Both the position numbers and the translations under genes were made by a program. This document shows, in pieces, positions 42,037-64,000 of a DNA stretch of 64,000 bases (its first letter is position 1; every line of letters begins with the position of its first letter). The notes under the pieces were generated by a model. That model was not told the DNA's origin. It did not search any database and saw only the letters and a list, made by a program, of their open reading frames with translations. The stretch comes from an uncultured archaeon (GTDB taxonomy: Archaea > Asgardarchaeota > Thorarchaeia > Thorarchaeales > Thorarchaeaceae): the NCBI GenBank assembly GCA_964558645.1, contig CAZLEV010000001.1, positions 349,568 to 413,567 of the forward strand, given 5' to 3'.

Positions 42037-43125
42037 ATGAATGCAATGCCCAAAGTCGCAGTGGTGAAGACCTCACCAAAGACAATCTTCGATGATATCG
42101 CCCGATTGATGGATCTGGCGGACTACGACCAGCATATGTCGAAGGATGTTATGACAACCATCAAGCTGAACCTCTCTTGGAGCAAGTTCTATCCTGCCTG
42201 TTCTACGAATCCATACATCCTGGATGGCGTGCTTCGAAAACTCATCTCTGATGGATTTGACAGCCGATCGATTCAGGCTGTTGAGAATGAGACTGTTGTC
42301 ACAAACATCTACGAGGGCGTCAAGAAGAACAACTGGTATCCTGTGATGCGCAAGCACAAGATCAGCTTTCTCCCGCTCATCAATGCCAACTATGTTGATG
42401 TCGAACTCCCACAAGAGACCCTTGTCCTTGAAGATATCTTTCGAGAAGTCATCGCTCCTGAGGAGATATTTGACACAAACATCATGCATCTTCCAACCAT
42501 AAAGACACATGGTCATACTCAGATGACCGGTGCGATGAAGGACTCATTTGGTCTATATCTCACGAAGAACCGCCATCTTGCTCATCTGAAGATACACGAA
42601 GTCCTTGTTGACCTCTTGCTTCTTCAGAAGACAATCTCACACTCCGAGTTCGTTGTGACCGATGGAACAGTGATGGGTGACGGCGCGGGACCAAGAACAA
42701 TGGAACCTAAGATCGGCAACATTCTCCTGGCTACACATGACATGGTTGCTGCGGACGCAGTTCAGACGAGGCTCATGGGTCTCGACCAAAGCCTGGTCAG
42801 AAAGCTTCAGATTGCGAAGGAACTAGGTCTGGGTGAGAATGATCCTGAAAGCATCGAGATCGTCGGAGATTTCGAGTCTTGGAAGGATCTGCCAAATTTC
42901 CATCTCAAGACCGGCAAGAGCCCAGTGATAACATGGAATCGAGGATTCTTACGTTTCCCCGGGATGGAAACATTTCTATTCCGGTCCCCTCTCATGTGGG
43001 TGCCTACTCAGCTATCGGGCCTCTATCATGATGGTATCTGGCTTCCTCTATTCGGAAAGAAATGGGTCAACTGGTTCCTTGAAGAAACTGAGTGGGGCGA
43101 GCTGTGGAAATCATACTCTCAGTAG
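42037..43125 (+). CDS. DUF362 domain protein
   Basis: IKLN, HLPTIKTHGH..MTGAMK, DGT...G.GP and D.VAAD motifs; no ferredoxin domain. Confidence 0.85.
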   Translation: MNAMPKVAVVKTSPKTIFDDIARLMDLADYDQHMSKDVMTTIKLNLSWSKFYPACSTNPYILDGVLRKLISDGFDSRSIQAVENETVVTNIYEGVKKNNWYPVMRKHKISFLPLINANYVDVELPQETLVLEDIFREVIAPEEIFDTNIMHLPTIKTHGHTQMTGAMKDSFGLYLTKNRHLAHLKIHEVLVDLLLLQKTISHSEFVVTDGTVMGDGAGPRTMEPKIGNILLATHDMVAADAVQTRLMGLDQSLVRKLQIAKELGLGENDPESIEIVGDFESWKDLPNFHLKTGKSPVITWNRGFLRFPGMETFLFRSPLMWVPTQLSGLYHDGIWLPLFGKKWVNWFLEETEWGELWKSYSQ

Positions 43126-43128
43126 AAG

Positions 43129-44085
43129 GTGAAAAGCATGGTGTTCAGAGACTATCTTAAAATGATGCGGCCACATCAATGGTACAAGAATACTCTTGTC
43201 TTCCTAGCTATCATCTTTGGGAGGATTACGATAGATGACATTGAGTATCCCACTCTGTTTCTCCTCGACAAGTATTTTCCATTGTTTGTGGGCTTCGCAA
43301 TTCTATGCATGATTTCGAGTGCAGGCTATCTATTGAATGATATAGCGGATCTAGAAAAGGACGCTGCTCACCCCGAAAAGAAGGAACGACCTCTTCCATC
43401 GGGTTCTGCGTCCCCTCGGATTGCGACTGCCTTGGCGTCAGTTCTGATGGTCGGCGGCCTGATTCTTTCCACATTCAATACCATGTTCTTGCTGGTTGTC
43501 ATTCTCTACATCATCAACTCTCAAGCATACAATCACTTCCTGCGCAACTATGCTGTCGTTGATGTTTCTACAATAGCCATTGGTTTCATACTTCGAGCTG
43601 TTGCCGGAGCGTTCCTGATACGAGTTCCCTTCACCTCTTGGTTGGTTATTGGGGTCTACTTCGTTGCGCTTGTGCTCGGATTTGGAAAGCGAAAGAATGA
43701 GTTACAGCTCATGGGCGAAGATGCTGCTGAGCACAAACCCGTGTTTACGCAATACACCGAGCAGATGCTCGATCAAGGTGTTCAGATGTCTGCAACATGG
43801 GTGGTCCTCTTCTATGCGCTCTACTGCTATGAGAACTACCGTACAGTCATGCTAGAACAACCGGTCATGCTTACGATTCCGTTTGTTGCTGGATTGGTAT
43901 TGCGCTACCTGTATCTTCTCAACAATGGGAGCCCCGTTGGCCGGAAACCACATCTTGCAATCCGTGATAAGGGCATACTGGTGGGCGGCATCTTATTCGG
44001 ACTTGTGCTCTTCTGGACTCTCTTCTTCTGGGTTCCGGTTTTGGAATTCTTTCTGGAGCTGTTTCCACCGCTCTACTATTGGTGA
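43129..44085 (+). CDS. UbiA-superfamily polyprenyl-phosphate phosphoribosyltransferase-like protein
   Basis: MRPHQWYKN, YLLNDIAD...D..HPEK..RPLPSG, GFILRAVAG, GKRKNEL and Y.LY, the motif set of the DPPR synthase subfamily. Confidence 0.85.
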   Translation: MKSMVFRDYLKMMRPHQWYKNTLVFLAIIFGRITIDDIEYPTLFLLDKYFPLFVGFAILCMISSAGYLLNDIADLEKDAAHPEKKERPLPSGSASPRIATALASVLMVGGLILSTFNTMFLLVVILYIINSQAYNHFLRNYAVVDVSTIAIGFILRAVAGAFLIRVPFTSWLVIGVYFVALVLGFGKRKNELQLMGEDAAEHKPVFTQYTEQMLDQGVQMSATWVVLFYALYCYENYRTVMLEQPVMLTIPFVAGLVLRYLYLLNNGSPVGRKPHLAIRDKGILVGGILFGLVLFWTLFFWVPVLEFFLELFPPLYYW

Positions 44086-44090
44086 GATCT

Positions 44091-44762
44091 ATGAGCGGAC
44101 GTATGTCAGCCTTTGATATGCATAGTCACAGTTTCCACTCAAAAGACGGGATGATTCACCTGAGCGACTTTTTCCCCTTGATGAAGAGGCGAGGTCTCAG
44201 GGGAATGGCACTCACAGAGCATGAGAAACCATCCATCCTGAAACCGATACAGCACGATGACTGTTTTCTGCTGAATGGTTGCGAGTTCAAGTCCACGGAT
44301 TATGGTGAACTCATCGGATTGTTCATCTCAGAACCTATCAAGAATCGATCCTTCAGTGAGATAGCCGAAGACATCCATGACCAGAATGGCCTCACCATCC
44401 TACCTCATCCATGCGACCCACTGCGGAAACATACAGCCCTGCGTAGAGGATTGCCGAAGGACTTGATTGTCAAACATGTTGATCTGATTGAGGGTATCAA
44501 CTCTAGGTGCATCATAGACCTATTCAACAAGAAAGCCCAGAAGCTTGCAAAGCAACTTGATAAGCCTATGACCGCGGGGAGTGATGGTCATAGCTTCCTT
44601 GAGGTAGGACATGCAAAGACTTGGCTACAAGATGTTGAAGATGTGGGAGATATCTATGAGGCGTTGAAAGCAGGGAGGACACAGATCTCTGGATATTGCT
44701 CACTTCCTTTATGGCACGTACCTACTGTTATCTGGCAACGGGTAAGGAAGCTGGGAAGATGA
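44091..44762 (+). CDS. PHP-domain phosphoesterase
   Basis: DMHSHS..S.DG, TEH, PHP, EGINSR and GSDGH motifs. Confidence 0.9.
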   Translation: MSGRMSAFDMHSHSFHSKDGMIHLSDFFPLMKRRGLRGMALTEHEKPSILKPIQHDDCFLLNGCEFKSTDYGELIGLFISEPIKNRSFSEIAEDIHDQNGLTILPHPCDPLRKHTALRRGLPKDLIVKHVDLIEGINSRCIIDLFNKKAQKLAKQLDKPMTAGSDGHSFLEVGHAKTWLQDVEDVGDIYEALKAGRTQISGYCSLPLWHVPTVIWQRVRKLGR

Positions 44763-45802
44763 CCGAAGAATCGGAACTTGACGAAGGGAACGGGAAACCT
44801 CTCATCAGCGTTCGCCACCTGATTCTGTTTGTGTTCATTGGAATGATCATTTACTTGGTCATCTTATTCTATGGGCGGATTGATGAAGTCCTATCTGCAA
44901 TAGGGGCTATTCCATGGTGGTGGGCTATCCCTGCAATGATGGGGTTGTCTCTCATCAATTATGGGATTCGTTATCTGAAATGGAACTACTATCTTAGACG
45001 CATCGACATCAATCTTTCACACGTAGACTCCTTCAGTATATTTTTAGCTGGGTTCACATTGACTGTATCACCTGGAAAGATGGGGGAGGCAATCAAAGGC
45101 TACTTCTGTAACGAGCTTGATGGAACACCCGTAGCTAAGACCGCTCCAGTGGTGATATCTGAGCGAGTGACCGACCTGTTGGCTATGGTCTTGCTTGCGG
45201 GGCTTGCTTTCATCATTGGATTCGGTGGAGAGAACCAACTTGTCCTCCTTGGTCTTGTTGGAGTTGTAGTGGTGGTTGGGGCCCTACTACTCGGTAATCG
45301 AACATTTTATGAGAGGATTTTGCAGAGGCTGACCTCAATTGGTCCATTGAAGCGATTTCAGGATAGCTGTGAACACATCGAAGAGACCATGACAAGCACC
45401 CTTTCACCGAAACCCCTTGTGGTGAGCACTCTGATCAGCATCCCTGGCTGGTTCATGGAGTGCCTTGAGCTCTGGCTTCTGCTTAGTCTTATCACAGGCG
45501 GAGGGCTACCGAGTCTGGCTCCTTCATCACTTGCACTGCTTGTTCAGGCGACATTTGTGCATGCCACCGCCTCTTCGGTAGGGGCAGTCCTGATCTTCCT
45601 ACCCGGTGGTCTTGGAGGTTACGAGGGCGTGGCTATATCCATAATGGAGATTCTTGTCGGCATTGCAAGGAATCTCGCTGTTGCTTCGACAATAATCATC
45701 CGTTTTGTGACTCTATGGTTCAGTGTGGCGGTTGGATTTGTCGGTCTTGGAATCGTTCAGCATAGGAAACGCTCTCGAGAAGCGGCCATGCACCAAGCTT
45801 AA
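44759..45802 (+). CDS. Flippase-like membrane protein (lysylphosphatidylglycerol synthase TM / UPF0104)
   Basis: R..KW, PGKMGE..K, ERVTD, PGGLGGYE and IRFVTLW motifs; ATGA overlap with the PHP gene. Confidence 0.88.
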   Translation: MTEESELDEGNGKPLISVRHLILFVFIGMIIYLVILFYGRIDEVLSAIGAIPWWWAIPAMMGLSLINYGIRYLKWNYYLRRIDINLSHVDSFSIFLAGFTLTVSPGKMGEAIKGYFCNELDGTPVAKTAPVVISERVTDLLAMVLLAGLAFIIGFGGENQLVLLGLVGVVVVVGALLLGNRTFYERILQRLTSIGPLKRFQDSCEHIEETMTSTLSPKPLVVSTLISIPGWFMECLELWLLLSLITGGGLPSLAPSSLALLVQATFVHATASSVGAVLIFLPGGLGGYEGVAISIMEILVGIARNLAVASTIIIRFVTLWFSVAVGFVGLGIVQHRKRSREAAMHQA

Positions 45803-45829
45803 AACATCGTCAAGATTTCATTCGCAATT

Positions 45830-46876
45830 GTGAGGCAAATGAAGGGAACTAAGGACTCTCTGAATCCATCATTCGAAATTGCGGTCAGGAATGCTGAAGA
45901 AGTCGTGACCGAGGAAGAAATTCGTACAATAGTCGAAGGCAAATCTGGATTCAACTTCTATTATGGCACTGCACCTACAGGCCCTTTTCATTTTGCATAT
46001 CTCATTCCACTCAACAAACTCGTCCAGTTGTCTGACATAGGCGGCCGAGGGACAATTCTGCTTGCTGACTATCACTCCCATCTGGACTCTCAGAAGACTT
46101 CCTTTGAGCTCATGGAGCTTCGATCCAAATACTATGAGGAATGCATCCGTGGAGTGCTAGGTAAGCATTCAGACAAAATGGATTTCCGTCTTGGTTCCAG
46201 CTATCAGCATAAGCGCGATTATGTCGAGGACCTATACCGCGTAGCGGCCAAGGTCACAACAACACGAGCAAAACGAGCTGCTAGTGAAGTCGTCAGGATG
46301 CGAGGAGAGGCAAAGGTTTCTGAGCTTCTGTACCCTCTTCTACAGATTCTTGATGTCAAGTACCTCCAGGCGGACATTACGGTTGGGGGCATCGATCAAC
46401 GGAACATCTACATGCTGGGTCGTGAAGTCCTCGAGGATGTGGGCTTCAAGAAGGGCAGCTACATCTTCATGCCTTTGCTTCCATCTCTTAGAGGTGGGGG
46501 AGCCAAGATGTCCGCCAGTGATCCGTTGTCCCATATCCGGGTGACGGATGAACCTGCTGCGATTCGTCGAACAATCAAGAAGGCATATTGTCCTGCAGGT
46601 GATCTAAAAGCAAACGCAATCACATCCACAGTCCGCTACATCGTCATGCCCCGCTTTGGGAAGCTTGAGATTGAGAGAAAGGAGAAGTTCGGCGGGGATG
46701 TAAGCTTCGATTCGATTGACGTGTTCGAAAAAGCATATGTCAACGAAGATATTCATCCCATGGACGTGAAGAAGGCTGTTTCCGAGGCACTTATTGACCT
46801 GCTCGAGCCTGCCCGTAAGTACTTCGAGAAGCATCAGGACTTGCTCGAAGAAGTAGAGAAGACATTTGAGACCTAG
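45830..46876 (+). CDS. tyrS: Tyrosine--tRNA ligase (archaeal/eukaryotic type)
   Basis: YYGTAPTG..HFAY (HIGH equivalent), YPLLQ.LD, GGIDQR, KMSAS and HPMDVK motifs. Confidence 0.95.
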   Translation: MRQMKGTKDSLNPSFEIAVRNAEEVVTEEEIRTIVEGKSGFNFYYGTAPTGPFHFAYLIPLNKLVQLSDIGGRGTILLADYHSHLDSQKTSFELMELRSKYYEECIRGVLGKHSDKMDFRLGSSYQHKRDYVEDLYRVAAKVTTTRAKRAASEVVRMRGEAKVSELLYPLLQILDVKYLQADITVGGIDQRNIYMLGREVLEDVGFKKGSYIFMPLLPSLRGGGAKMSASDPLSHIRVTDEPAAIRRTIKKAYCPAGDLKANAITSTVRYIVMPRFGKLEIERKEKFGGDVSFDSIDVFEKAYVNEDIHPMDVKKAVSEALIDLLEPARKYFEKHQDLLEEVEKTFET

Positions 46877-46904: not shown

Positions 46905-49900
46905 CTAGTCTATGTCGATGCCAAGACTCTCCAGTAACGCCTTCAGATCAGCCTTTGAGAGGTTCTCGGCCTCTTCAAGTATCGTATCTATCTCATCCGA
47001 TGACATGCCCTTCTTTTCGAGTTTCATCTTCAGGTCCTGAAGTTCCTCCGGTAGGTCTCCGAGGGTCAGTTCTTCTTTGACCTCCAGCTCCTCTACGCCT
47101 GCGAGTTCGTCCGCTCGTCTTGCCTCCTCTTGGATAATGACCTCTTTGATGAATCCCGGTCTCTCACTCGGCTTCATCCTTGCGAGGTCAAGTCTGAAGG
47201 CCTCAATCTCTTCATCGCCTAGGCCAGTAATCTCAGCAAGCCTCTTGAGGAGTTCGTCCACCTCAGGCACAATCGCTCGGATGGTCTCACCTTCTACCTC
47301 CTCCAATGTCTTGGTTACGCCAGAAGGTCGTAGCTCCTCATTTGCAATCTGAAGAATCGTCTTCCTACGAGATGGAACGTCTGCAGGCTTCGGCACTCCT
47401 CCTCGAGCTAGTTTACGAATCATTGCGTTCATTACGCGTACTAGTTTGGGAACGCTCCAGATTCTCACATACAGGAAGAGAAGGGCGGCAAAAAGGATGA
47501 GCCCTATGCTTCCGTAGGTTGTTAGCGCCTGAGTCAGGACTTGTGCCGCAGATGGGTCTGAACGTATCTCGAATTGGATCGATTGAGTTTCATAGAGCTC
47601 CTTTGTGAAGGCGACGCTCATAATAAAGGTACCTGCCTCGTTCACTTGGAGTAGTAGAATGTATGTACCGTTACCTAGAGATTGAAGCCTGTCCGGATAG
47701 TATGTGAGACTGCCAGTCCCAAAGCTCACATCTGGAACTACGTTTTCTATTCCTACTCCGTGGTCTAAGTCCCAATAGGTGATGGTGACCTGGATTGCTG
47801 AGCCCGGTATCGTCTGGACAGTTGTGTTGGATACCATTAATGTGGTACGGATTCTTCGTACATCAAGGTCAATCGTGTGAACGGGGACAGAGTACATGGT
47901 GCCAGTGAAGCTTACTTCTATGGTGTAGAGACCTATGGGGAGGTCACTGGGAACGTTCAATACGAAGCTCCCGTTCCCGAGCTGTGTGAGTTCCGCTTGA
48001 CCAATACCCTCGAAGAAAGCCAGCCCATTCACGTCCGAAATCGTTACCTGTGTCAGGTCATTGACAACTGTCAGAACAGCGCTAGTTCCCTCACCAATGG
48101 GTATCGATAGGCTCTCTGTTCCTTCGACATGAGCAGGCGTTCTAGCCATGGCAAGAATTAGCCTGATCGATGCAGTGTCGTAGTTGTCCAGAGAACCCTG
48201 AATCTGGATTTCATAGTTGCGCGGAACTGTGACATTGATGAACACTGTGACCGTATAAGTTCCATTGGCATCATCAGTGACAAGTCCTGATCCGCCATCC
48301 CAGATAACCACCAGTTCAGCACCGACTACTGGTTGGTTGTTATAGGTGTCATTCAGATACAGTGAGTATGTGACATTGTAGCCATGGTATCCGGATTGAG
48401 TTGACGTGTCTGTTTCGAACTTCGTCGGCAACGGAACAATACTTGCGAGAGACCTCAACTGAGATGTTGAATAACCCTCTCTTGATGCGGTCAATCTCAG
48501 ATAGAGTGTTTGTGAGCCTATTGGAGTTGTGTTGATGTTTGCCCTGTAGCTCCCGTCAGGTTGCTCAATAAGCTCCCCTGACAGAGTACCTAGAGTATAC
48601 GTAAGATTCGCTCCAAGTATCTTCTGGTTGTTGTCTTCGTTCATGTAGTCTACAGATATGACTATTGAGCTACCGTAGTAGACAGTAAGGTGAGTGATGT
48701 CTTCATCTATCTGTAACCTCGTCGGAACTGGCACGATGTTGATATCGACAGAGGTTTCCAAGAATGCGAAGTTTGTTTCTATCGCCCGAACTATCAACTC
48801 GTATTCTCCCAATGGGAACCCTGACATATTTAGACTCACGATGTAGAAGCCTGGTGTTCCGTTATTGGGAACAAGGTAGTCCGTTCCGTTCCACTCGATT
48901 GATACTTCATCTGCAGTGACAGGCTCGTTTCGACCAGTATCATTGAGATAGACCCAGAAAACAAGGTTGGTGTCGGTGACCACATTAAGTATCGATTGTT
49001 CGAGTACTATCTGACCGGTTCCTCTCGATACTGACAGTGTGAATGTTCTCTGTCGTGTCTGATAAAACTCCCGTGATACTGTTATTTGGGGCTGGTAGGT
49101 ACCATAGTCGTTATCACGTGTGTTCAGATACAGCTCGTAGGTGCCGTCCTCGTTGTCCGAGAAGGTGTATTCTGTGTCGTTCCAGACGAGTACCGCATCC
49201 ATGCCTGGTACCAGCGTGCCGTGATAGGGTTCTTCCACTTCAATGATAATATGAACCATACTGCCCCAATCGGCATAATATGTCGTTCTGTCCATCACTA
49301 TCTCAACTGTGAGGGCACCCGGTTGGATGGTAACAGATGCAATACCAGTCGAATAGTTCTCAAGCTGAGCTTGGATCTCGAATGGGTATTTCTGCGCTAT
49401 CAGGCCAGTAGTATTGATTGCGATTTGATAGATGCCTGCAGCAGTTTCTGTTATGGTCACTTCAGTCGCATAGAGCGCTTCCCAGTTGGTCGTTACAAGT
49501 GCGTCACTCAGCACACCTCCATGGTCTGCATCAGTGAATGTTACATTGACTCGGTGAATGTCACCCAATGGTAGCGATCCGAGTGGAGGTGCTTCTGCAC
49601 TAAGCGCAGTCTGTATCAGCCTGATTGTTGCTGGAACATCGGTTGTGGTTCTATTCGAGTAGAATGGTATTCCGGTCTTGCCCATTGTTATGTTGAAGAA
49701 TATGACACCTGCACCTCCAAACTGGGAGGTGGGAATCAGAATCCTGTAGGTTCCTTCACCTATCTCTTCCAAGTAGTAAGTTGCAGAAGTCAGGTTTGTG
49801 AACGAGATTGTTGCAGAGGCATTCTCTATCCCAGCATCAGACAGATAGTCTACAAACTCGAATTCAACAGTGATATTGCTCAATAGAGGAGTTTCGTCAA

Positions 49901-52900
49901 CCAATGGGAACAGTATTTGTGTAGGCCTTTCGGTTGTCGTTGCTTGGGTCGTCTTTTCGCGACTAGCATAGTATGGCTCGACACCGGACTTGTTGACCAG
50001 AAGGCGAATCTCATGAGCAGTAACCAAGTTCTCCGAATCAAGAACCGTAGACTTGAGGCTTATGTGATATACATCTTCTGTCATATCTAGGCTGTATTCG
50101 GCTGAAGTGATTATCGTACTTGTCGGACCATGAAACAGAGTAATGTGTGTCTTATTGATACTAATGACTTGTCCTGTCAGGTAATCGGTGAAACGAAATG
50201 AGAATGTCACGTTTTCTTCGAACGGCGTTTCGCCGGGCGTCTGAGTGATCAATATCTGAGTTGGCCGCTCGACAACTCTTGCGTTTATGAACCTGCCAGA
50301 GGTCGCGTAGTATGGCTCTCCACTCCATGACAGAGTCACATTTAGTGAATAAGTCGCAAGCCCACCGAGAGCTTGAGTTTCAATGCGTATCAGGTAGTCG
50401 CCATTTCCGATATCAGTGAACCAGTAATTGACGCCTGGCTCCAGCGAATCCGTTGAATCATCACAAGAAACAAGCACCGCTGCCCCGCTGATCTGGGTTC
50501 CAGTAGTGTCATCAGAGTACGAGACTGTGAAGCTCACGTTAGTACCATAGGGTGCGGGGTCCGGGCTGTCATAGCCAAGTTGCGTGACTCTATCCAATAT
50601 TGAAAGACTGAGTATCTCTCCGGCATCAGCAGCGAAGTTAGTCCCGTTGTAGACTATGGTGGCGTTGATTATGAAGATGCCAGTTGTGGAGAAGGAGGTG
50701 TTGAGTTTCACCATATAGTGACCGTTTCCTAGTCCTGTAACCGTATACCATCCTTCTAGAGTGGTGTTTAGCATCAAGTTACCTGTCATGCCGGAGCTAC
50801 TGCCTGCAATCAGGTCTGTATAGACAAACTCGATTGATACGTCGTTCCCCCACTGTGGAGGAGTGAACGAGAGATGTGTCAGCTGGGTGCTGCGTAGGGT
50901 CACGGTGATGCCAAATGACTTGCTACTGATCGACGTGTAGTATGGCTCTCCTACCCATGATAGGTTCAGGTGGAGTGTAAAAGTACCCGTACCACCGAGT
51001 GTTGCTGTGTCTATCGCTATTGTGAATGTTCTTGTTCCGGAATCATAATTCAGTGAGTAAATGACGCCGCCTTCATTTAGAGATATGGAGAGAGAACTAG
51101 AATTCTCGATTCTCACACTCGTCAGAGAGTCTATGTAGCCAAACTGGAAGTATGCATCTTCTCCGTATGGCGTGATATCCGCAGATGAGTAATCAACATA
51201 AGTTGGTCTTTCAAGTATGATTAGACTCACTGTCAGAGTCTTGTTCTCATAGAGTGGACTCACGCCCTCGCTCCATTCGAAATCTATTTGGAACTTGAAA
51301 GTACCCACAAGCCCAAAGCGCGATGAATCGAGAGAGAACCTGTAGGTTCCGGGGTTGCCCACGAGCTCTGTTACTTCGAAATCATTTTGCGCCACAGAAT
51401 GTCCGGAGGTTATTGTTGTGATTCTGAGCCAGACGTCTCCTGTGGATGCATTTGAGATGCGAGTTCCATTCACAGCGTCATAGTAGACGACTGTAAACGT
51501 GAAGTTATTCAAGTAGTAGGTTGCTGTTGGCGCTTGTTCAAGATAGAGGTCGGTCGCCGTCCCAAGGACTCTGACTTCCGTCAATATGGTCTGATTGTAG
51601 TACTTCTCCACTGCTCCTATCCACTTTGCTTCTATGGTCAAATCTTTCCATCCGATGCTTCCCCATTGGTCGCTTGCGATCGTGATGTTATAGTGTCCCT
51701 CACCCAAGCTGGATTCAGAGACTGAATATAGGAGATCGAGTACTCCTGAGGAGCTGACCGATATCTGAACGTTTCCGGAGTTGTTGTTGATTCCCGTTCC
51801 CAGATCTGTGTCACGATACTCGACAAGTACGATTATGCTCTGCCCGTAGGGTGTCTGCTCCACAGGGCTATCAAGAACAAATAGCGTGTTATGACTTCGG
51901 ACCTGTACACCAATAGAGAAGGTGTGATTTTGATAATTCTGTCGTCTGACATTGAACTCGACGTTGTAGAACTCATCTGTCCCTGTTATTTCGTCGTCAT
52001 CCTCAGTGAAGATTGTTATCTCATATACTCCATCATCTATCTCGACTACAGTGTAGTTCTGTTCACCGCTCTCGTGGAACGGAGTCCAATTGCAGGTTAT
52101 GTAAGATGCGCCACCTGTTATCGGAACGTCGAGCTCGCTGTCAAACCATGTCAGTGTGAAGGAGTCCGATTCTCCTACAGGAATCGACAATCGGTTGGCG
52201 GAATACGAGACGCGATTGTAGATCTCACGTACCTCCACATATATGACCATTTCAGCAATCTCAACGAAAGGGGCATTTGCTTGAACTAGCACAGGATATT
52301 CATCCAGAGGCACTGTTGAGCTATCAAGGTCGATTCTATATACTCCCAATCCCTGTTCGGTCACAGTGTAAGACTGGCTCCAGTTAGACGTGACAAGTGC
52401 TCCCACTATCCCGGTTCCGTTCACGTTCTTGAAGGAAACGTTGAAGCTTTGGTCGCTCCCTATTGCTCCGGATATTCCCGGGTATTGTGGTGATTCAAGT
52501 GTTGAAGCATAATTCACATTGAGCGTGATGGTGGCCTGGGCAGCATCGTAACTACTCTTCGACCAAGTGAGATCCACATCATATTGTCCCTTTCCGGGAA
52601 GCATGGATGTGTCCAGTACTTTGGTGTACTCGCCGTTGCCGCTGTCATCAAATGAATCTGCACCGTCATACCATGAATACTGTAGATTGCCCCCAGGAAC
52701 TAAGATGTCACTATCGGTGTCATTGGCCTCTACGATAAGAAGAACAAGGTCTCCGAAGGTTACGTTGGTGGTCCATGTGCCCACTGCATCATCTGGGTAG
52801 CTGATTACTAGCTCAGAGGAGTGAGTCACTGTGAAGGGCCTTCTGAAGAATCCAGTGTTTTGCCATTCGCCGTTTGCGGCCAAGTCATTAGTAGATGCCT

Positions 52901-54644
52901 GAACCATCCAACTTCCTGCCGAAGAGTTGCTGCCTGCGAGGTTGAAGAAGGGCGTGGTTGCATAACCTGTTCCATCTGCAGTGGCATTGACAGAGTACAT
53001 CTTGACTCCAGCAGGGTCGTAGATTGTGATATTGACAATGGCGTCTTGGAATGTGCTCCCAACATAAGCACGGACACGGGTGCTATTTCCTGCCCTCAAG
53101 TCAGTCGTCCGTTTCCAAGAGGTATCATTGGGATCATATAACTCCAAATCTTGAATCATGTTGGGCGCTGACGAGCGAATTCTCCAGTAACCGTAGCGAC
53201 CTGCCTCTGTAGCTACATCATAAGCTGATACATTGAGATAGCCGTTTCCGGGCTGACCGCCATTCCATCCAGAAGTGAGGTTTGTCGACGGCGCTAGGGG
53301 TTTCGCTACGAAGAACACATCTCTATTCAGAGGAATCGTCTGATTGAAGTAGTATCTGTTGACGTAGCCCGTTGGAATTGCGGCATAGAAATAGGTCGTG
53401 TAGTTCACTTCAGTTGCATTCTGCACCACATATCTCTGCCCGTAAGAATTGGGACTTATCTCATATACCGTGGGTATATCAAGGCGTCTTGCAAACATGT
53501 TGCTCTCGACATCGAACTCAACGATTATCTTGCGATTCGGGTCTGGGTTGGTTGGTGTTGGACTCCATGTGAAGTTGAGCACCACAGGATCATCGGTCCA
53601 AGGTGAATCAGCCATCTCGGTTACATAACCGGAACCGTATCCCGGGGCAGAGCTGACACTGATACCGTTCATTGCAAGACTCACGTCAGAAGGTGCTGCT
53701 CTTGTCTTGACATAGAGTTCGAAGTTGTCAACTTTGGCTCTTGGTCCAATCTCGGGGTCATAACCCACAGATGCCTTACTCCAGAGTCCTATCTCGACGT
53801 TAACATCCTGGTCTGCAGGTAGACTGAATATGTCAGGGGAAACATCGGTGAGTCCCGAGTCATACCATGTTTCTTCAGCATCTATGTCGGTGAAGACCTT
53901 CTGCCAGACCTGTGAACCTTCAATGTTCAGATAGACGGCAAATGAGCCGGTCATTCCATAGTGGGTATCATCTTGGGTATCAGCCCAGTAGTCTGTTCTG
54001 AATGCGGCCCATACAACTTGCCCTCTAGGTATGGACATGGTCTGGGTCACATAGGCACGGTCGCCTTGATCATAGTAGAACGGTGCACTCGCTGAGTTGG
54101 AATCTATCTCGAAGTCGAAGGTACCATCTCCCGCCCCACGACCCGATGAGTTGTATGATGATATTGGTGTGCTGTATGAACCGACGTCCGTCAAGCCTGC
54201 CGTCCAGTCTGAGATGGTCGGTTCGCTGTTGAAATCCCAGTTCCTTACCCAAGACCTGTTCTCTGTCAACTGGGATATCTGTGCTTCAACACGGTATCCT
54301 TCCCACCCGCTTCCGGTAGGAACACTGACGTTTGTTCCTGTTGTAGTGTTCGATGCAAGATACGTCATCAGCTTGTTCCGGAAGTGGTCTGTTGCATTCC
54401 CGAACTCACTACTGATCAGCGGATCTGTAGTACCTACCCATTCCAGACTACCTTGTTCGCTAACGACGAATTTGTGAAGCAACTCCCCAGGCTCCACGTC
54501 AACAGTCTGTCCATTGCCAACATCCACAGGAATGCCCTTGGTGAGATCAGGTTCAATAGCTGATAGGCTATTCAGATTTGAGAGTATTGGGACAAGGAAC
54601 AGGAATACAACTGCGAATGTTGGGATTAGTCTGCGTCTATTCAT
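46905..54644 (-). CDS. Giant type-I membrane protein A (2579 aa): head, ~17 Ig-like modules, TM, ~187-aa cytoplasmic tail
   Basis: Signal peptide, repeated ~100-120-aa beta modules (T.L...PYG.N.T..Y.D...I.GA...G.G.Y), TM near 47469-47516, charged helical tail. Confidence 0.9.
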   Translation of the reverse strand: MNRRRLIPTFAVVFLFLVPILSNLNSLSAIEPDLTKGIPVDVGNGQTVDVEPGELLHKFVVSEQGSLEWVGTTDPLISSEFGNATDHFRNKLMTYLASNTTTGTNVSVPTGSGWEGYRVEAQISQLTENRSWVRNWDFNSEPTISDWTAGLTDVGSYSTPISSYNSSGRGAGDGTFDFEIDSNSASAPFYYDQGDRAYVTQTMSIPRGQVVWAAFRTDYWADTQDDTHYGMTGSFAVYLNIEGSQVWQKVFTDIDAEETWYDSGLTDVSPDIFSLPADQDVNVEIGLWSKASVGYDPEIGPRAKVDNFELYVKTRAAPSDVSLAMNGISVSSAPGYGSGYVTEMADSPWTDDPVVLNFTWSPTPTNPDPNRKIIVEFDVESNMFARRLDIPTVYEISPNSYGQRYVVQNATEVNYTTYFYAAIPTGYVNRYYFNQTIPLNRDVFFVAKPLAPSTNLTSGWNGGQPGNGYLNVSAYDVATEAGRYGYWRIRSSAPNMIQDLELYDPNDTSWKRTTDLRAGNSTRVRAYVGSTFQDAIVNITIYDPAGVKMYSVNATADGTGYATTPFFNLAGSNSSAGSWMVQASTNDLAANGEWQNTGFFRRPFTVTHSSELVISYPDDAVGTWTTNVTFGDLVLLIVEANDTDSDILVPGGNLQYSWYDGADSFDDSGNGEYTKVLDTSMLPGKGQYDVDLTWSKSSYDAAQATITLNVNYASTLESPQYPGISGAIGSDQSFNVSFKNVNGTGIVGALVTSNWSQSYTVTEQGLGVYRIDLDSSTVPLDEYPVLVQANAPFVEIAEMVIYVEVREIYNRVSYSANRLSIPVGESDSFTLTWFDSELDVPITGGASYITCNWTPFHESGEQNYTVVEIDDGVYEITIFTEDDDEITGTDEFYNVEFNVRRQNYQNHTFSIGVQVRSHNTLFVLDSPVEQTPYGQSIIVLVEYRDTDLGTGINNNSGNVQISVSSSGVLDLLYSVSESSLGEGHYNITIASDQWGSIGWKDLTIEAKWIGAVEKYYNQTILTEVRVLGTATDLYLEQAPTATYYLNNFTFTVVYYDAVNGTRISNASTGDVWLRITTITSGHSVAQNDFEVTELVGNPGTYRFSLDSSRFGLVGTFKFQIDFEWSEGVSPLYENKTLTVSLIILERPTYVDYSSADITPYGEDAYFQFGYIDSLTSVRIENSSSLSISLNEGGVIYSLNYDSGTRTFTIAIDTATLGGTGTFTLHLNLSWVGEPYYTSISSKSFGITVTLRSTQLTHLSFTPPQWGNDVSIEFVYTDLIAGSSSGMTGNLMLNTTLEGWYTVTGLGNGHYMVKLNTSFSTTGIFIINATIVYNGTNFAADAGEILSLSILDRVTQLGYDSPDPAPYGTNVSFTVSYSDDTTGTQISGAAVLVSCDDSTDSLEPGVNYWFTDIGNGDYLIRIETQALGGLATYSLNVTLSWSGEPYYATSGRFINARVVERPTQILITQTPGETPFEENVTFSFRFTDYLTGQVISINKTHITLFHGPTSTIITSAEYSLDMTEDVYHISLKSTVLDSENLVTAHEIRLLVNKSGVEPYYASREKTTQATTTERPTQILFPLVDETPLLSNITVEFEFVDYLSDAGIENASATISFTNLTSATYYLEEIGEGTYRILIPTSQFGGAGVIFFNITMGKTGIPFYSNRTTTDVPATIRLIQTALSAEAPPLGSLPLGDIHRVNVTFTDADHGGVLSDALVTTNWEALYATEVTITETAAGIYQIAINTTGLIAQKYPFEIQAQLENYSTGIASVTIQPGALTVEIVMDRTTYYADWGSMVHIIIEVEEPYHGTLVPGMDAVLVWNDTEYTFSDNEDGTYELYLNTRDNDYGTYQPQITVSREFYQTRQRTFTLSVSRGTGQIVLEQSILNVVTDTNLVFWVYLNDTGRNEPVTADEVSIEWNGTDYLVPNNGTPGFYIVSLNMSGFPLGEYELIVRAIETNFAFLETSVDINIVPVPTRLQIDEDITHLTVYYGSSIVISVDYMNEDNNQKILGANLTYTLGTLSGELIEQPDGSYRANINTTPIGSQTLYLRLTASREGYSTSQLRSLASIVPLPTKFETDTSTQSGYHGYNVTYSLYLNDTYNNQPVVGAELVVIWDGGSGLVTDDANGTYTVTVFINVTVPRNYEIQIQGSLDNYDTASIRLILAMARTPAHVEGTESLSIPIGEGTSAVLTVVNDLTQVTISDVNGLAFFEGIGQAELTQLGNGSFVLNVPSDLPIGLYTIEVSFTGTMYSVPVHTIDLDVRRIRTTLMVSNTTVQTIPGSAIQVTITYWDLDHGVGIENVVPDVSFGTGSLTYYPDRLQSLGNGTYILLLQVNEAGTFIMSVAFTKELYETQSIQFEIRSDPSAAQVLTQALTTYGSIGLILFAALLFLYVRIWSVPKLVRVMNAMIRKLARGGVPKPADVPSRRKTILQIANEELRPSGVTKTLEEVEGETIRAIVPEVDELLKRLAEITGLGDEEIEAFRLDLARMKPSERPGFIKEVIIQEEARRADELAGVEELEVKEELTLGDLPEELQDLKMKLEKKGMSSDEIDTILEEAENLSKADLKALLESLGIDID

Positions 54645-57600
54645 TCTGCATCCCCTCCTAGTTGGTCAAGAAGAGCATCTATCTCCGCTTTGGAGAGGTT
54701 CCTAGCTTGTTCTATCATCAGTTCGGCTTCTGCTCCGTCAATGCCCATCTCAACGAGTCTCTCCCGTAGATGATCCAGTTCTTCCTCGGTGAGTTTCCTC
54801 TCTAGGTCTAGTGTTTCCTTCTCTGGTTCGGCAAGTTTCTCTGCCTCCACAATGTCCTTGGCACGTCGTGCACGTTCTTGTTTTAGGACTTCGCTGATGA
54901 AGCCTGCACGTTCACTGGGCCTCATCTTCTCAAGATCTCCTCTTAGCGTGTCTACATCTTCAGGTGCCAATCCGACAACAACAGCGAGCTCTTTCAAGAG
55001 TTCTTCAATATCAAGAATGGATATGTCAACGGTTGAGGGCGCAACATCGGCCGACCCTTTCACAACTCTCACCGGCCGCAAATCCTCGTTCATCATATCA
55101 ATGATCACCTGTTTTCTGTTACGGACAGGAGCTGGCTCAGGTATCTTCCCTCTAGATAGCTGTCGGACCATCGCTCTGATTCTCCTCAGCATCTTGGGAA
55201 CTGACCAAACCCGAATGTAGGCTGCTGCAAAGGCGACAAGGCCAAGAATGGCAAGCGCCAGATAGCCGAAGCTTGTATAGAGGGCCTGTTGCTCAGGACT
55301 GAGTGTGACGTATACGATACCAGAATACGTGCTGGACTCGTAGTTGGTCTTGTTCAGTTGAATCCTGTACTCGTAACCCTGCACGTTAGTTCCTACGAAA
55401 GCGAACACATACGTGCCATTCCCGAAGTCGATAGATGATTCTGGCAATACCTGAAGTGATGTTCCAGATGTTGAGTTGACAGCCATGGGAATCCCTGTTT
55501 CATGGTCGACATCCCAGTATGTTACTCTCACGAATACTGTCTGACCTGAGAATACTGTGCCCGGCGGAGGTGTGACTTGTAGTTCAGTCCTGATCTGTCT
55601 GATAGTCATCTCCACAATGATCTCTCCCCTACTGTAGTTCCCCCGAGTGAATGTAACTCGTATTATGTATGGATTCTCGCGAACGTCGAGTGACTGAATA
55701 CCTGACTCAACGGCCCCGAATCGGTATGACCCATTTCCTAGGTTTGTGAGTGGGTCGGCACCGAATTCCCAGATCGCAGTTGCCGTAGCATCTGTGACTA
55801 GAACGTGGTTCAAGGTATCATTGAATTGGAACAACTGTGTGTAGTCATCACTTACAGGGATGTCAACCTCTAGTGTTCCTATCACTTCTGTTGGAATGGG
55901 CAAGACTCGCAGTTTCACCGAGCTATAACCAAACTCATAGCGGGTCTTCTGGAATGAAACAGATATGTCGTATGGAATGATACCCGCTTGAACTAATGAG
56001 GTATCCAGGGTGAAGGAATAGGTGCCGTTTTCTCCCTCAAGAAGTATTCCGGTGTAGTCGCCAATGGTAAATGATGTTGTTGCATCTTCAACACTCATTG
56101 AATTTGTCTCATCCCAGAATGAAAACGAGAATGTCGCCAATTGTCCGTAGTAGACGTCTTGAGAAGCATCAGTGAGGATCTCAACTGTCGTCCGAATCCT
56201 TGTGACTGTTAGTGTGAATTGGAGTGACGCAGAAGCATACCCGTCTTTGGTGCTTGACACTCTCAAGATGTACTCTTGGATGGCTAATTCGGTCGTGTTC
56301 ACCAGAGCGTAATACCACCCATCCTCAATCTCGGAGAGATTACCGGAGATGCCTGATATGCTGTAGATCAGGTTGGCACCTGTTACCCCCGTGCCAAGAT
56401 CTGTATTGTTTAGGTGGACAGTGATATTCGCAAGAGCTCCTGCAACGGCGCTTAGCACTGTCCGTCCGTCAACGGGTGTGATTTCTGTATTTATCTCTCG
56501 AACCTCAATCGTAAGCTGGATGCTGATACTCTTGTAGTTTGTAGAGGTTGCTTGGACTTGAATCTGATAGTTGCGTATACTAACTCCTTCGATTGTGAAA
56601 TGGCCGACATATCTTGAGAGGGTGGAGTTCCAAATCAAGATGCCAGAGCCTCCCGTCCAAGCAAATGAAAGCGAGCCGTCTGGGATGACAGTGTCATTGG
56701 CTTGGATTAGGTATTGCGCTTCAATAGTGACATTCTGCCCATTCACGACCACCAATTTGTCGAGAGCCCCGGTAAGACGGGCGGGAACCTTGGATATTCG
56801 TACTTGGAATTCCCTCTGTCTAGATTCGTAATTGGCGAGAGCGAAGCTTATCGAGAGCGTGTATTCTCCTGCGTTATAGGCCAGCGTCGACAGATTCAGT
56901 GAGTAGGCACCGTTTTCGATCTCGATCATCGCAAACGTGTCTGACAGGACCGTTAGGTTGACGTTTCCGCCAACAACACCAGTGCCATTTCTTGCATTCG
57001 TGACGTTTACATTGATTGTGACAATTGTTCCCCATTCTGGACTCTCGGGATGAGCATCCAAATCGATGTCAACAGGAAGGGCTGCCAGAACTATGTCCGC
57101 CGTTATCGTCCTGTTGTAGTGGAGATATGATGAAGCATATACTTCGAAGGGGTACTCTCCAGCATCTAGAGGCCGTGTGTCAATGGTGAGGTAGTATACT
57201 CCACCGACGCCTTCTAGTATTGTGGCTGTAGAGCCGTAGAGTGACTGCCAGTTTGTCGTGACATTTGCTCCTTCGATACCAAGACCTGTGTTTATGCTTG
57301 TGAAAGTAACATTCGCCTCAAGGGTGTCGCCAAGATAGTATGTAACACCTGTTGGAACAACAAGAGCGAGCTCTGTTGACACGGGATTCAATGTGATACT
57401 GAATGACAGTTGGGTCTTATTCTGATAGAAGGGGGTTCCCAACCAGGTGAAGTTCGCAGAAAAGCGATACTTGCCGAGGGTTGGAAACTCGGTTGTGTTT
57501 ATCCTAACTTCATAGGATCCGTCAGCACCGACGAGAACCCAGTACTCGATTACTGACACATTCGAACAAGATACTGTGACTTCGGCTCCGGATATCCCGT

Positions 57601-60600
57601 TTCCTGTCAGATAGTCCGTGTATTTCAAAACGGCGGTTGCATTGTAGAATATGTCTGCAGGGGGAGTTGAGAGAACACTGGCTTGAGTGAGCCTCTGGGT
57701 GATAGTTGCTTCTGTGGAGGTACTAGAGTTGGCATAGAATGGTATTGAATCGCCCCAGAAGAACTTGACAGAGACTGGATGTTTGCTTACCAGTTCGGAT
57801 ACGAGCAACGTGGACTGGATCGAGATCGAGTATACCCCATTGGTGCCAGAGAGTGAGTACTGGCTGCTGGTGAGCGTTTCGCCTGCTCCATGGCCGAGAA
57901 GGAGTTCCAGTTTGCTCAGGGATATCCCCGAACCATCGAGATCATCTGTGACTGTTATTTCGAATGTGACGTTCGAAAGATATGGGGTGTTGAGTGGCGA
58001 TTTTGATATGGTAATCGTTGCGGGTCGGCGAGATACCTCTACTTCAGCTGTTCTGGTTCTATTCTGGTAGTACGGGCTCCCGGTATAGCTTGCTTCAATC
58101 GCTATAGAATAAGTGCCGAATCCGCCAAGTGCCTCAGTAGAGATTCTGACTCTGTACTGACCATCTCCAAGATAATCAACGAAGTAGTTCACACCCAGTT
58201 CTAGGGGTTCATAAGATGAACTGCATGATGCAAGGATGGTCGCATCTGGTATACCTTCGTCGGTGTTATCATCAGAGTACGTTACTGTGATGTTTGCCTG
58301 TGTGAGATAGGGTGCCAGATCTGGAAGGTCACTCGTTAGTTGTGCCCTTCTTCTTGTGACCGTGAGATAGAAGTAGTCGCCTGCGTCCTGACAGTATCTG
58401 CTTCCGCCGTAAATGATGGTCACATTTATTGTGAAAGTGCCCAATGTTTCCAATGCACTTGTGTTAAGGACGACTGTGTAGGTTCCGTCCAGATTGTCAT
58501 AAGATGTGTAATTTCCCTCGAGTGAGGCATCAAGCGTGAGAGTGCCTCCCTGCATGCCCGTACTGGTGAAGTCATCCAAGTCTGTGTAAGTGAATAACAG
58601 GGTAAGATTGTTTGCAAACTGTATCGGCCCATATGCTCCGTGAGTGAGCTCAGTGAATCTTTCTCTCACTGTGATAGGAATCTCTACAGATGTTCTGTTT
58701 TGGTAGAAAGGCTCGCCAGTCCATGTGAAATTCAAGTGGAATGAGTGACTTCCGGGTATCCAAGAAGAGGTATCAATCTCTATGAAGAATGTTCCAGTTC
58801 CATCTCCTTCGTAGTAAATGGTGTATCCTATTACCTCTTGAATCGAAAGGTAGAGGGTCGATGCATTTAGAATTGCCTCTCCTAATAGAACATCCCTGTA
58901 GACTACGGTCAGGTTCACGAGCTCATCATATGGCACTGTAGGAAGTGGTGTCCAGTCAACATTAGTCTGCCGCTGTGTCGTATAGACCGTGATTATGAGG
59001 GTCTGATTCTCGTACAGCGGGAGTTGACCTTTTGTCCAGTTGAACTGAATCCGCAAGTCGCAGGAAATGAGCCCACTGAGATAGGATGTGTCGAACTCGA
59101 TCTGGTACTCTCCTGGATTATTGACAGGATCGAGTTCCGTTATGACCATGAGGCCTTGAGATAGGGCCTGGCCAGCTGTCAACACATCGATGTATAGGTG
59201 AACATTGAATGGATATGAGCCAGTTGCGTTCACTATCCCCGTGTCATTTGCGACATCGTAATATATCACGCTGAATGTGAGATTCTCTCCGTATGGTGTC
59301 ATGACTGGATTTTGTCCAATGAAGATGTCAGTCGGGGTACTCGTGATTCTCACACTTGTTGTAACGGTCTCATTGGAGAACTTGACTGTAGGTCCAGTCC
59401 AGTTAGCGTAGATGATCAGGTCTTTTGTTCCAGTGGAACCCCACTGGCTTGCAGGTAGTGATATAATGTATTCTCCTGATTGGGTTCCATTCGCCACATC
59501 ATAGATGATTGATGGGAACCCTGGGCTCTCAACGTATATCAAGGCATTAGAGCCAACAATCCCGGTATCCGCATCTACGTCATAGTAGACAACAGATATG
59601 ACAACATCTGCTGTGTACGGTGTCGGGTCGATTGGGTTTGTAAGATAGAATGATGTGAGATGGGTTCTAAGCTGCACCTTCACATTGAACGTATGATTTT
59701 GGGCGCCGTATTTCTTAACATTGAACTCCACTGTGTACGTGTCAAGAATGTCATCATCCAGCGAGTACAGATCGACACGATAGACTCCGGGTGTGGCCGT
59801 TTCTGTGACATTGTAATCATCGAAGGTATAGCCATGGAGTGCTGACCAGTTGCAAGTTATGGCATCAGCTGAGTCCGTGATTGGCTGGTCATGATCCGTG
59901 TCAGTATAGGTTATGGTGAATGAGGTTGTGTATCCCACTGGAAGTGACAGCTGGCTTGTTGAGGGAATGGCCGATGTAAACAACTCGCGTACTTCTAGAG
60001 AGAGGACAATCGTGCGTGATTCGTAGTAGTCCTTTGCGGCAGTGATGGCAACATCATACTCGCCGATGCTGACTCCGTCAGTGCCCAGTGTCAGAGTGTA
60101 ATAGCCCGGATTTCCTGTCTGTGGTGCTACGGAGTAGCTGTCATGTGTCCAATCCGTAGTGATCTGTGCGTCAGTTATGGGGTCCCCTTTTTGGTCCTTG
60201 AACTGCACTGTCATCTCGGCGTCGTAACTCATGGGAACGTCTACTCCTGGAGCATCAGGAGAGAGAAGGTCCGTAGTGTAGATGGCGTTGATGATGAAGT
60301 TTCTCGACAATGGGTCATAGAAGTCCTTGTTCCACTCGAGAGAGACGTTGAACGCACCGTTTGATGCAAGCTCTCCCGTGTCCAGTGTTATGCTATACTC
60401 TCCCGTTCCCAGATCATTCATCGTTCCCGACCCGGCAGCCCAAGAGTAGGTCATAACACCCCCGGCAAGCAGATCTGTGTTATCAGCATCTTGGACTCTT
60501 AGCTGCAGAAGAATCAGGTCACCATGAGTCACATTTTTCGTCCACGTTGCTGCAGACCCAACTGGATACTTAACGCTCATGTCAGTGGAGTGTGTTACGC

Positions 60601-63491: not shown

Positions 63492-63998
63492 CTATGTTCT
63501 TGCCTCACGCCTCTTGAACCAGACCAGTATGAGAACCACCAACACGAAGGTGTACGGAACGATGAACATCATACTGTAGAGAGCATGTGCTCCATTCGAG
63601 GTGCCAGATGTGGGTTCGACAAGTGTCACCCATTCAGTCGTCGCAGAGTTGAGTCCTCTATCATAGGCCTGTACCATAAGAAGGACTCCATGTTCTGGCT
63701 CGAACGCACGGATGCTGAACTGGGTCGTCCACAGACTTCCGTTGTAGGTGCAGAGGAACTCGAGGGTTGTTTCATTAAGACTCACCACGGCCGTGACATT
63801 CTTCACCCCCGCAATGTCGTCCGATACTTCTGCCCACACGGAGAGGTTTCCACCGGCGAAGTCGTGAGGCTCATATCCCCAGTTCCATATTGTCGGCGGA
63901 AGGGTATCTGCTACCGAGAAAACCATGTCATGCTTTCTCTGCTTAGCCTGTTGAAGCGCATCGTAGCAGCCATGCCAGTCCATGGATTCGTATCTCTC
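63492..63998 (-). CDS. C-terminal part of a membrane-anchored surface protein (5'-truncated by the window edge)
   Basis: Frame is open to the window end; Ig-like segment (DTLPP...VSDD.AGV..V...AYD) and a TM followed by KRREART. Confidence 0.7.
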   Translation of the reverse strand, partial: ERYESMDWHGCYDALQQAKQRKHDMVFSVADTLPPTIWNWGYEPHDFAGGNLSVWAEVSDDIAGVKNVTAVVSLNETTLEFLCTYNGSLWTTQFSIRAFEPEHGVLLMVQAYDRGLNSATTEWVTLVEPTSGTSNGAHALYSMMFIVPYTFVLVVLILVWFKRREART

Positions 63999-64000
63999 AC

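Follow-up and report, generated by a model that had tools for sequence, protein, structure and literature searches.

A conserved, predicted all-helical cytoplasmic tail on paired giant surface proteins of Thorarchaeota, and its possible role as a docking end

In the present study, we analysed the tails of two giant proteins, A and B, encoded in a stretch of 64,000 nucleotides from an uncultured archaeon (contig CAZLEV010000001.1, positions 349,568 to 413,567 of the forward strand; hereafter, the window). A and B are giant type-I proteins of the surface of this archaeon, a member of the Thorarchaeota (Asgard), and their C-terminal tail belongs to no described protein family. In both proteins, a basic membrane-proximal segment opens the tail; a first three-helix unit (unit 1) comes next, and an acidic linker joins it to a second one (unit 2). 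We tentatively propose, as slightly short of an even chance, that a receptor-like giant surface protein uses this tail as its docking end in the cytoplasm, where it would serve a putative partner. A sequence-only reading of the window had placed the tail of A at 46905-47470 with a copy in B, and these positions matched ours (Table 1) to within a codon or two. The A/B motif pairs that it had quoted, such as RIWSVPK/RVWSVPK and NLSKADL/NLSKAEI, were all present in the translations.

The topology of the two proteins was read from their hydrophobic segments, charges and glycosylation sequons. The N-termini of A and B each carried a signal-peptide-like hydrophobic segment, and one further hydrophobic helix was found near the end of each protein. 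N-x-S/T sequons were counted 64 times outside the tail and once within it in A, and 67 times and once, respectively, in B. Across 60 family members, the ectodomains had 2.33 sequons per 100 residues and the tails 0.34. In the same members, the first 35 residues past the membrane helix contained on average 10.4 Lys and Arg versus 1.4 Asp and Glu residues. By the positive-inside rule, the Lys- and Arg-rich stretch after the helix, together with the N-terminal signal, indicated that the tail is cytoplasmic, and the drop in sequons agreed with this. A position on the cytoplasmic side is thus well supported by these features of the sequence.

The structure of the A tail was predicted with AlphaFold2 using a 69-row alignment. 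The model contained nine helices, with a pLDDT of 89.7 and a pTM of 0.51. The two helices of the membrane-proximal segment (4-20 and 33-48) flanked an invariant turn at G22/P25. Unit 1 comprised helices 69-80, 84-95 and 102-116, the last of which ran on to residue 128, and unit 2 comprised helices 139-151, 156-166 and 171-180. The pLDDT dropped to 63 in block 121-130, within the linker, and residues 1-128 folded alone gave a pTM of 0.49. The pTM of 0.51 and the low-confidence linker suggested that the modules are loosely connected, and one compact globule was not predicted. Prediction therefore supports well a folded, all-helical tail, whose local structure is confident and whose overall arrangement is uncertain. 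The tail was neither extracellular nor disordered by these measures, either of which would have spoken against the sequence-only reading. The calculated pI was 11.9 for tail residues 1-48 and 4.3 for the rest of the tail.

Table 1. Genes A and B and the parts of their tails (window coordinates; residues are numbered in the protein or, where marked, in the tail)
Feature	Residues	Window position	Strand	Remarks
Gene A		46905-54644	minus	open reading frame of 2579 aa: signal peptide, sequon-rich ectodomain, one membrane helix, tail
Gene B		54641-63319	minus	open reading frame of 2892 aa, paralogue of A, with NHL propeller insert
A membrane helix	2372-2393	47466-47531	minus	Kyte-Doolittle hydrophobicity peak
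A tail	2394-2579	46908-47465	minus	186 aa; stop codon 46905-46907
A membrane-proximal basic segment	tail 1-48	47322-47465	minus	helix 4-20, G-x-x-P-x-P turn, helix 33-48 (AlphaFold2)
A unit 1	tail 64-118	47112-47276	minus	predicted three-helix bundle, most conserved part
A acidic linker	tail 119-133	47067-47111	minus	low model confidence; length varies across the family
A unit 2	tail 134-186	46908-47066	minus	C-terminal three-helix unit; G153 invariant
B membrane helix	2679-2702	55214-55285	minus	Kyte-Doolittle hydrophobicity peak
B tail	2703-2892	54644-55213	minus	190 aa; from alignment to the A tail and the B-type orthologue alignment A3
B membrane-proximal segment		55070-55213	minus	
B unit 1		54860-55024	minus	
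B linker		54803-54859	minus	
B unit 2		54644-54802	minus	

The tails of A and B shared 43% identity with a BLASTP E value of 3e-52, which placed their similarity far above chance. Per 100 residues, the identity between A and B ranged from 19 to 48%. The tail had been counted from the sequence alone among the best conserved parts of the pair, and this was borne out with a nuance: at 42-44%, it exceeded the membrane-proximal ectodomain (19-35%) but was only on a par with the ectodomain's N-terminal half (up to 48%). P0012 and P0014 are full-length orthologues of A. A comparison with orthologues in other Thorarchaeota assemblies resolved the tail further. Unit 1 (tail 62-118) retained 77-79% identity, compared with 55-66% for unit 2, 46-50% for the membrane-proximal segment, 20-53% for the linker and 42-48% for the last ~975 residues of the ectodomain. 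These sequence comparisons support well a stronger constraint on the tail than on the adjoining ectodomain, and they support strong purifying selection.

We then located the conserved residues within the tail. Among A-type tails, 56 alignment columns did not vary, and among B-type tails 46; the two types differed at positions that were conserved within each type. The positions invariant in the family (P6, R10, P25, R33, L76, M97, S100, F105, V109, Q112, E113 and G153) were concentrated in the membrane-proximal motif and in the third helix of unit 1. The near-invariant residues of this helix included hydrophobic (F105, V109 and I110) as well as polar ones (S100, E101, E108, Q112, E113 and R116).

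The relationship between the two units was evaluated by structure and by profile. Each unit had a helix-loop-helix-loop-helix layout of ~50 residues, and one three-helix stretch of the designed protein 8eov_A could be superposed on either unit, with Z scores of 4.5 and 5.5. Profile-profile comparison of units 1 and 2 yielded one local match of 21 columns with a score of 25.1, compared with a mean of 9.7 and a maximum of 19.3 in 150 column-shuffled controls. This match paired helix 2 of unit 1 with helix 1 of unit 2, in a register different from the one proposed from the sequence alone. The latter scored 14.9 and 12.9 with one gap in an ungapped scan, in which several other offsets reached 13-14. 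In addition, a unit-1 hidden Markov model cross-matched a unit-2 copy of one relative (P0101) in the shifted register of the profile-profile match, with an E value of 3.4e-4. Since every helix is an acidic cap followed by an amphipathic helix, the register could not be fixed from sequence. The earlier claim of two related units thus stood only in part, as to the shared three-helix layout and a match better than the shuffles; the register stayed ambiguous, and the bundles were generic. A common origin of units 1 and 2 is plausible but unproven.

The tail also varied in length, with classes of ~187, ~245 and ~408 residues and a full range of 180-414 residues among 69 tails. The ~245-residue class had a longer charged linker, and the ~408-residue class had four tandem copies of unit 2, an array seen in six relatives. 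The existence of such arrays shows that unit 2 is a real module that can be duplicated independently.

To describe the distribution of the tail, an exhaustive phmmer search with the A tail was run against 1.84 billion representative proteins and gave only 100 matches at E ≤ 0.001. Nearly all of them lay at the C-terminus of a long protein or of a contig-truncated fragment of one, and relatives were also found in metagenome-assembled genomes labelled Hodarchaeota, Hermodarchaeota and Promethearchaeota. A profile of the 69 tails (A1) was then run on 301 genomes of the phylum, one of them the window's own, and 100 genomes, counting the latter, had a match. The profile matched 73 of the 76 other genomes of the window's family and the single genome of its sister family. 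Each genome of these two families that had a match carried 1-11 of them. Most lay where an open frame ends; the frames reached ~5600 residues, and many ended early at contig ends. A second Asgard family carried divergent full-length tails (E 1e-7 to 1e-12) in 17 of its 19 genomes, and only the membrane-proximal segment was recognisable in a family with 1.4-Mb genomes and in one genome of a fourth family. The tail was conserved in every homologue that these searches found.

Three giants of the window's own genome matched profile A1, namely A (E 1.5e-66), B (5.9e-68) and a third paralogue, C (2.9e-71). In all three, the tail was C-terminal after the single membrane helix of a giant protein and retained P6, R10, G22, P25 and R33 of the membrane-proximal motif, M97, S100, E101, F105, V109, Q112 and E113 of unit 1, and at least one unit 2. 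Moreover, the ectodomain stalks of tail-bearing giants were homologous, with 24-27% identity, indicating that the tail is part of one large family of giants rather than a shuffled domain. A scan of genome contigs with a single protein as query gave four archaeal loci, three of which were labelled Thorarchaeota, and a bacterial HsdR gene (L009); the latter was a chance match from a shared word, GDEEIEAF. From these sequence searches, the confinement of the tail to giant single-pass proteins of Asgard archaea is well supported.

Several further observations were made on these relatives. The divergent tails on giants of another Asgard family (L010, L012, L015-L017 and L019-L021) and of the family with 1.4-Mb genomes (L013 and L018) had the membrane-proximal motif in common. 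Their G-L-G hairpin resembled unit 1 and led into a helix, K-I-P-x-K-D-R-x-W-F, and then into different short helical repeats, L-[ST]-x-E-E; in the family with the small genomes, nothing beyond the membrane-proximal part could be recognised. Paralogue C, at ~29.7-37.8 kb of its contig (G000:C1; L023:5677-13779), had a longer linker. It was preceded by a giant open frame of at least 1878 residues that ran into an assembly gap, a run of N, just before its end (L023 covers G000:C1 24000-42000), and this gap may hide a fourth tail. A RadB/Rad51-like gene lay downstream of C.

The tail was next compared with known families and folds. Pfam searches of A, B and the 69 tails gave nothing above the cut-offs and matched no enzyme family or catalytic motif, in agreement with the earlier remark that no catalytic motif is visible. 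With Foldseek, neither the whole tail nor residues 1-128 matched the Protein Data Bank at E ≤ 0.001. The best Z scores of VIA-align over 48,161 chains were 6.4 and 7.1, within the background for helical models, and its top matches were adenovirus protein VIII, KIX and protein-A-like bundles. Searches of the ESM Atlas reached a TM of ≤ 0.31 by shape and a score of 0.83 by features, below the useful range, and the best profile match among Protein Data Bank sequences (PBP2 MrdA, 42 columns, E 0.012) was at chance level. No published description of the tail was found in the literature. Pfam holds no entry for the tail, which could be described as a new family.

Generic three-helix bundles, such as the B-domain of staphylococcal protein A, KIX and segments of adenovirus protein VIII, shared the topology of units 1 and 2. 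Protein A domains reached a TM of ~0.5-0.58, normalised by target, and the best structural match of unit 1 was generic (8roq_N, Z 7.1, rmsd 2.8 over 62 residues). However, the identity was 6-20% and the scores lay within the helical background, and no functional inference is possible from this likeness.

A likeness to helices of the death-fold superfamily (DD, DED, CARD and PYRIN), which the sequence-only reading had hesitantly raised, was not supported. Each unit had three helices, not six, and the two units were split by the low-confidence linker. PYRIN appeared below threshold in 8 of the 69 tails (best E 0.018), and the Pelle death domain (Z 4.2) and the Drosophila apoptosome (Z 4.3-4.6) scored within the generic helical background. 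The tail lacks the one compact antiparallel six-helix bundle of ~80-90 residues that marks this superfamily, and it varies in linker length and unit-2 copy number. An ESCRT motif of the MIM1 type was rejected by eye for helix 1 of unit 2: the spacing L, L+4, L+7 fitted, but the flanking acidic and basic positions did not.

The gene neighbourhood of the tail-bearing giants was also conserved. In the window, B lay upstream of A on the same strand, and the stop codon of B and the start codon of A overlapped by 4 nucleotides. The conserved order comprised a membrane protein of 725-751 residues with an HExxHxxGxxH motif, a B-type giant, an A-type giant with the 4-nucleotide overlap, TyrRS and an operon of the lipid-linked-sugar type. 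Orthologous loci kept this order at a protein identity of only ~43-53%, and the overlapping B-then-A arrangement recurred in three of them (L025-L027). In other genomes, tail matches often occurred as same-strand pairs, ~7.7 kb apart for the A/B type or ~9.6 kb apart for the C type.

The neighbouring genes themselves were as follows. The gene immediately before B, also on the minus strand, encoded a 725-residue protein (window 63492-64000 and beyond; L022:560-2737) with a signal peptide, a C-terminal membrane helix and a metzincin-type HExxHxxGxxH motif, and with no Pfam match; in L025-L027, an open frame of 751 residues held its position. This protein is possibly a protease of the cell surface with a role in processing the giants. 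A GAF-PAS-PAS histidine kinase (L022:2994-5021; G000:C1 ~415.5-417.5 kb) was encoded two genes upstream of B, again on the minus strand. On the other side, gene A was flanked at window 42037-46876 by TyrRS and an operon of DUF362, UbiA-type prenyltransferase, PHP and LPG_synthase_TM genes, all of which kept their position in L024-L027. A link between the operon and the glycosylation of the sequon-rich giants is possible.

Within the giants, B had an NHL-repeat beta-propeller (residues ~180-440, window ~61990-62860; Pfam NHL E 9.9e-39) that was absent from A and accounted for most of their difference in length. The B-type orthologue P0023 had no alignable sequence at this stretch (identity 4-8%). 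In the head region of A, residues 525-587 (window ~52880-53070) gave a weak match to MG2 of the alpha-2-macroglobulin type (E 5.2e-5, 24 bits versus a cut-off of 32.8). On the plus strand, open frames of 91 codons (47077-47352) and 143 codons (54789-55220) lay antisense to the two tails; they are probably by-products of a coding strand rich in Glu, Asp and Leu codons rather than genes.

Since the tail appeared cytoplasmic, folded and conserved and matched no enzyme, an interaction or oligomerisation role, as the sequence-only reading had proposed, was the most reasonable interpretation. The location, predicted fold and conservation stood; the role itself is what we infer. In the docking reading that we tentatively prefer, the basic amphipathic membrane-proximal helix would lie on the inner leaflet and orient the tail. 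Unit 1 would provide a specific binding surface for a conserved cytoplasmic partner, with its third helix keeping both hydrophobic and polar residues. The acidic linker would act as a flexible spacer of variable length, and unit 2, in one to four copies, would extend reach or avidity through a second contact that can be repeated. Because both chains of the conserved, coupled B-A pair carry type-specific tails, two related docking sites may sit side by side. Several points weigh against this proposal. Small acidic three-helix units are generic; the pTM of the models (0.49-0.51) leaves the overall arrangement uncertain; and by conservation alone, docking cannot be told apart from self-assembly or a role in biogenesis. 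Furthermore, no other protein of the window's own genome carried unit 2, so that a simple like-with-like adaptor was not evident.

The last observation would also fit tails that bind each other, A with B or like with like, and so hold the giants together or cluster them under the membrane, as the genome has no soluble protein carrying unit 2. Such a pairing or lattice module is a real possibility, though we considered it rather unlikely. It would agree with the typical same-strand tandem pairs of tail genes, with the translational coupling and conserved order of B and A, and with the conserved differences between A-type and B-type tails. On the other hand, the conserved residues of unit-1 helix 3 are often polar or acidic, and the pI of 4.3 beyond the membrane-proximal segment means that like-with-like contacts would be disfavoured unless cations or basic partners bridge them. 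The tail could instead be recognised as a signal in membrane insertion, hand-over for glycosylation, localisation or regulated proteolysis of the giant protein, and the conserved upstream metalloprotease-like membrane gene could be involved. The membrane-proximal motif (P6, R10, G22, P25 and R33) is the part most widely conserved across Asgard families, the membrane-anchored HExxHxxGxxH protein is the conserved upstream neighbour, and the lipid-linked sugar operon adjoins the giants in the window and in orthologous loci, all of which would suit such a signal. However, sorting signals are usually short, a need that two folded units, with unit 1 at 77-79% identity, exceed, and the predicted protease domain is extracellular, across the membrane from the tail. 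We regarded a biogenesis, sorting or turnover signal as improbable.

A further explanation is that the units would bind DNA, RNA or a filament as helix-turn-helix, helix-hairpin-helix or RecX-type repeats, possibly after release from the membrane by cleavage. The most frequent weak Pfam match, RecX_HTH1 (PF21982), appeared below threshold in 23 of the 69 tails (best E 0.0024), where its ~20 matched residues surround the first turn of unit 2; A itself scored 14.6 bits against a cut-off of 26 (E 0.034, profile positions 19-38 of 40). Two relatives with four repeats reached 29.1 and 29.9 bits as a sum over the repeats, with no single significant stretch. The likeness extends to tandem three-helix units of ~50 residues, to a K-G-hydrophobic-S/P-x-x-E-I turn between helices 1 and 2, and to arrays of up to four units. 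The L-x-x-I-x-G-L-G hairpin pattern of unit 1, which in the second Asgard family approaches the helix-hairpin-helix consensus more closely, and the automatic names 'HTH antitoxin' and 'RecX' given by JGI also point in this direction. In contrast to RecX repeats, the tail units are strongly acidic (pI 4.3) and sit at the end of an archaeal membrane protein, and the scores of A and B fall far below the cut-off. Within the 40-position profile, the matches are limited to positions 17-38, and hardly any single stretch reaches significance. No helix-hairpin-helix profile of Pfam matched the A tail at E up to 1, seven distant tails at E up to 0.1, or appeared among the 25 families commonest in the 69 tails, and neither a helix-hairpin-helix nor a RecX structure was among the top structural matches. 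A helix-hairpin-helix identity was rejected, as the resemblance is one of pattern only and lacks profile support, and we judged a released, nucleic-acid-binding or filament-binding domain very improbable as a whole.

A bolder form of the docking reading, to which we give only a slim chance, would make the tail the inside end of an Asgard adhesion receptor that signals from outside in, with units 1 and 2 recruiting the actin-type cytoskeleton, ESCRT or a small-GTPase module. If so, contact by the ectodomain pair would be coupled to cell shape or membrane remodelling, and the closest relatives of eukaryotes would hold an independently arisen prokaryotic analogue of integrin and cadherin signalling. 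No link of the tail to a eukaryotic domain was found; none to actin, ESCRT or GTPases was found either, and none was tested for. For the docking reading itself, unit 1, at ~55 residues, offers a small soluble bait for the cell components that are joined to the surface.

Archaeal surface giants normally end just past the membrane anchor. The giant adhesins and S-layer proteins of the PGF-CTERM/archaeosortase type resemble A and B in their huge ectodomain of Ig-like repeats, many sequons and C-terminal anchor. However, they end a few basic residues past the anchor, whereas here 186-408 conserved residues follow the helix, and no PGF motif was found within 40 residues upstream of any of the 69 tails. 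What sets the present family apart is a predicted folded cytoplasmic module, constrained more tightly than the ectodomain and carried by 1-11 giants per genome, usually in coupled pairs, in a lineage close to eukaryotes. Such an architecture is that of a transmembrane receptor and not of a passive coat protein. The closest parallel in layout was with integrin alpha/beta chains and classical cadherins. No sequence or fold relationship was found: the 69 tails contained no NPxY motif of the talin/kindlin-binding type and matched no integrin or cadherin cytoplasmic family of Pfam, and the tail consists of predicted folded three-helix units, not of short or disordered peptide motifs. The likeness to the tails of paired eukaryotic adhesion receptors is one of architecture only. 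It comprises a single membrane pass, a very large glycosylated ectodomain of repeats, a basic membrane-proximal segment with a conserved, non-enzymatic cytoplasmic region after it, and two related chains that are encoded and probably made together.

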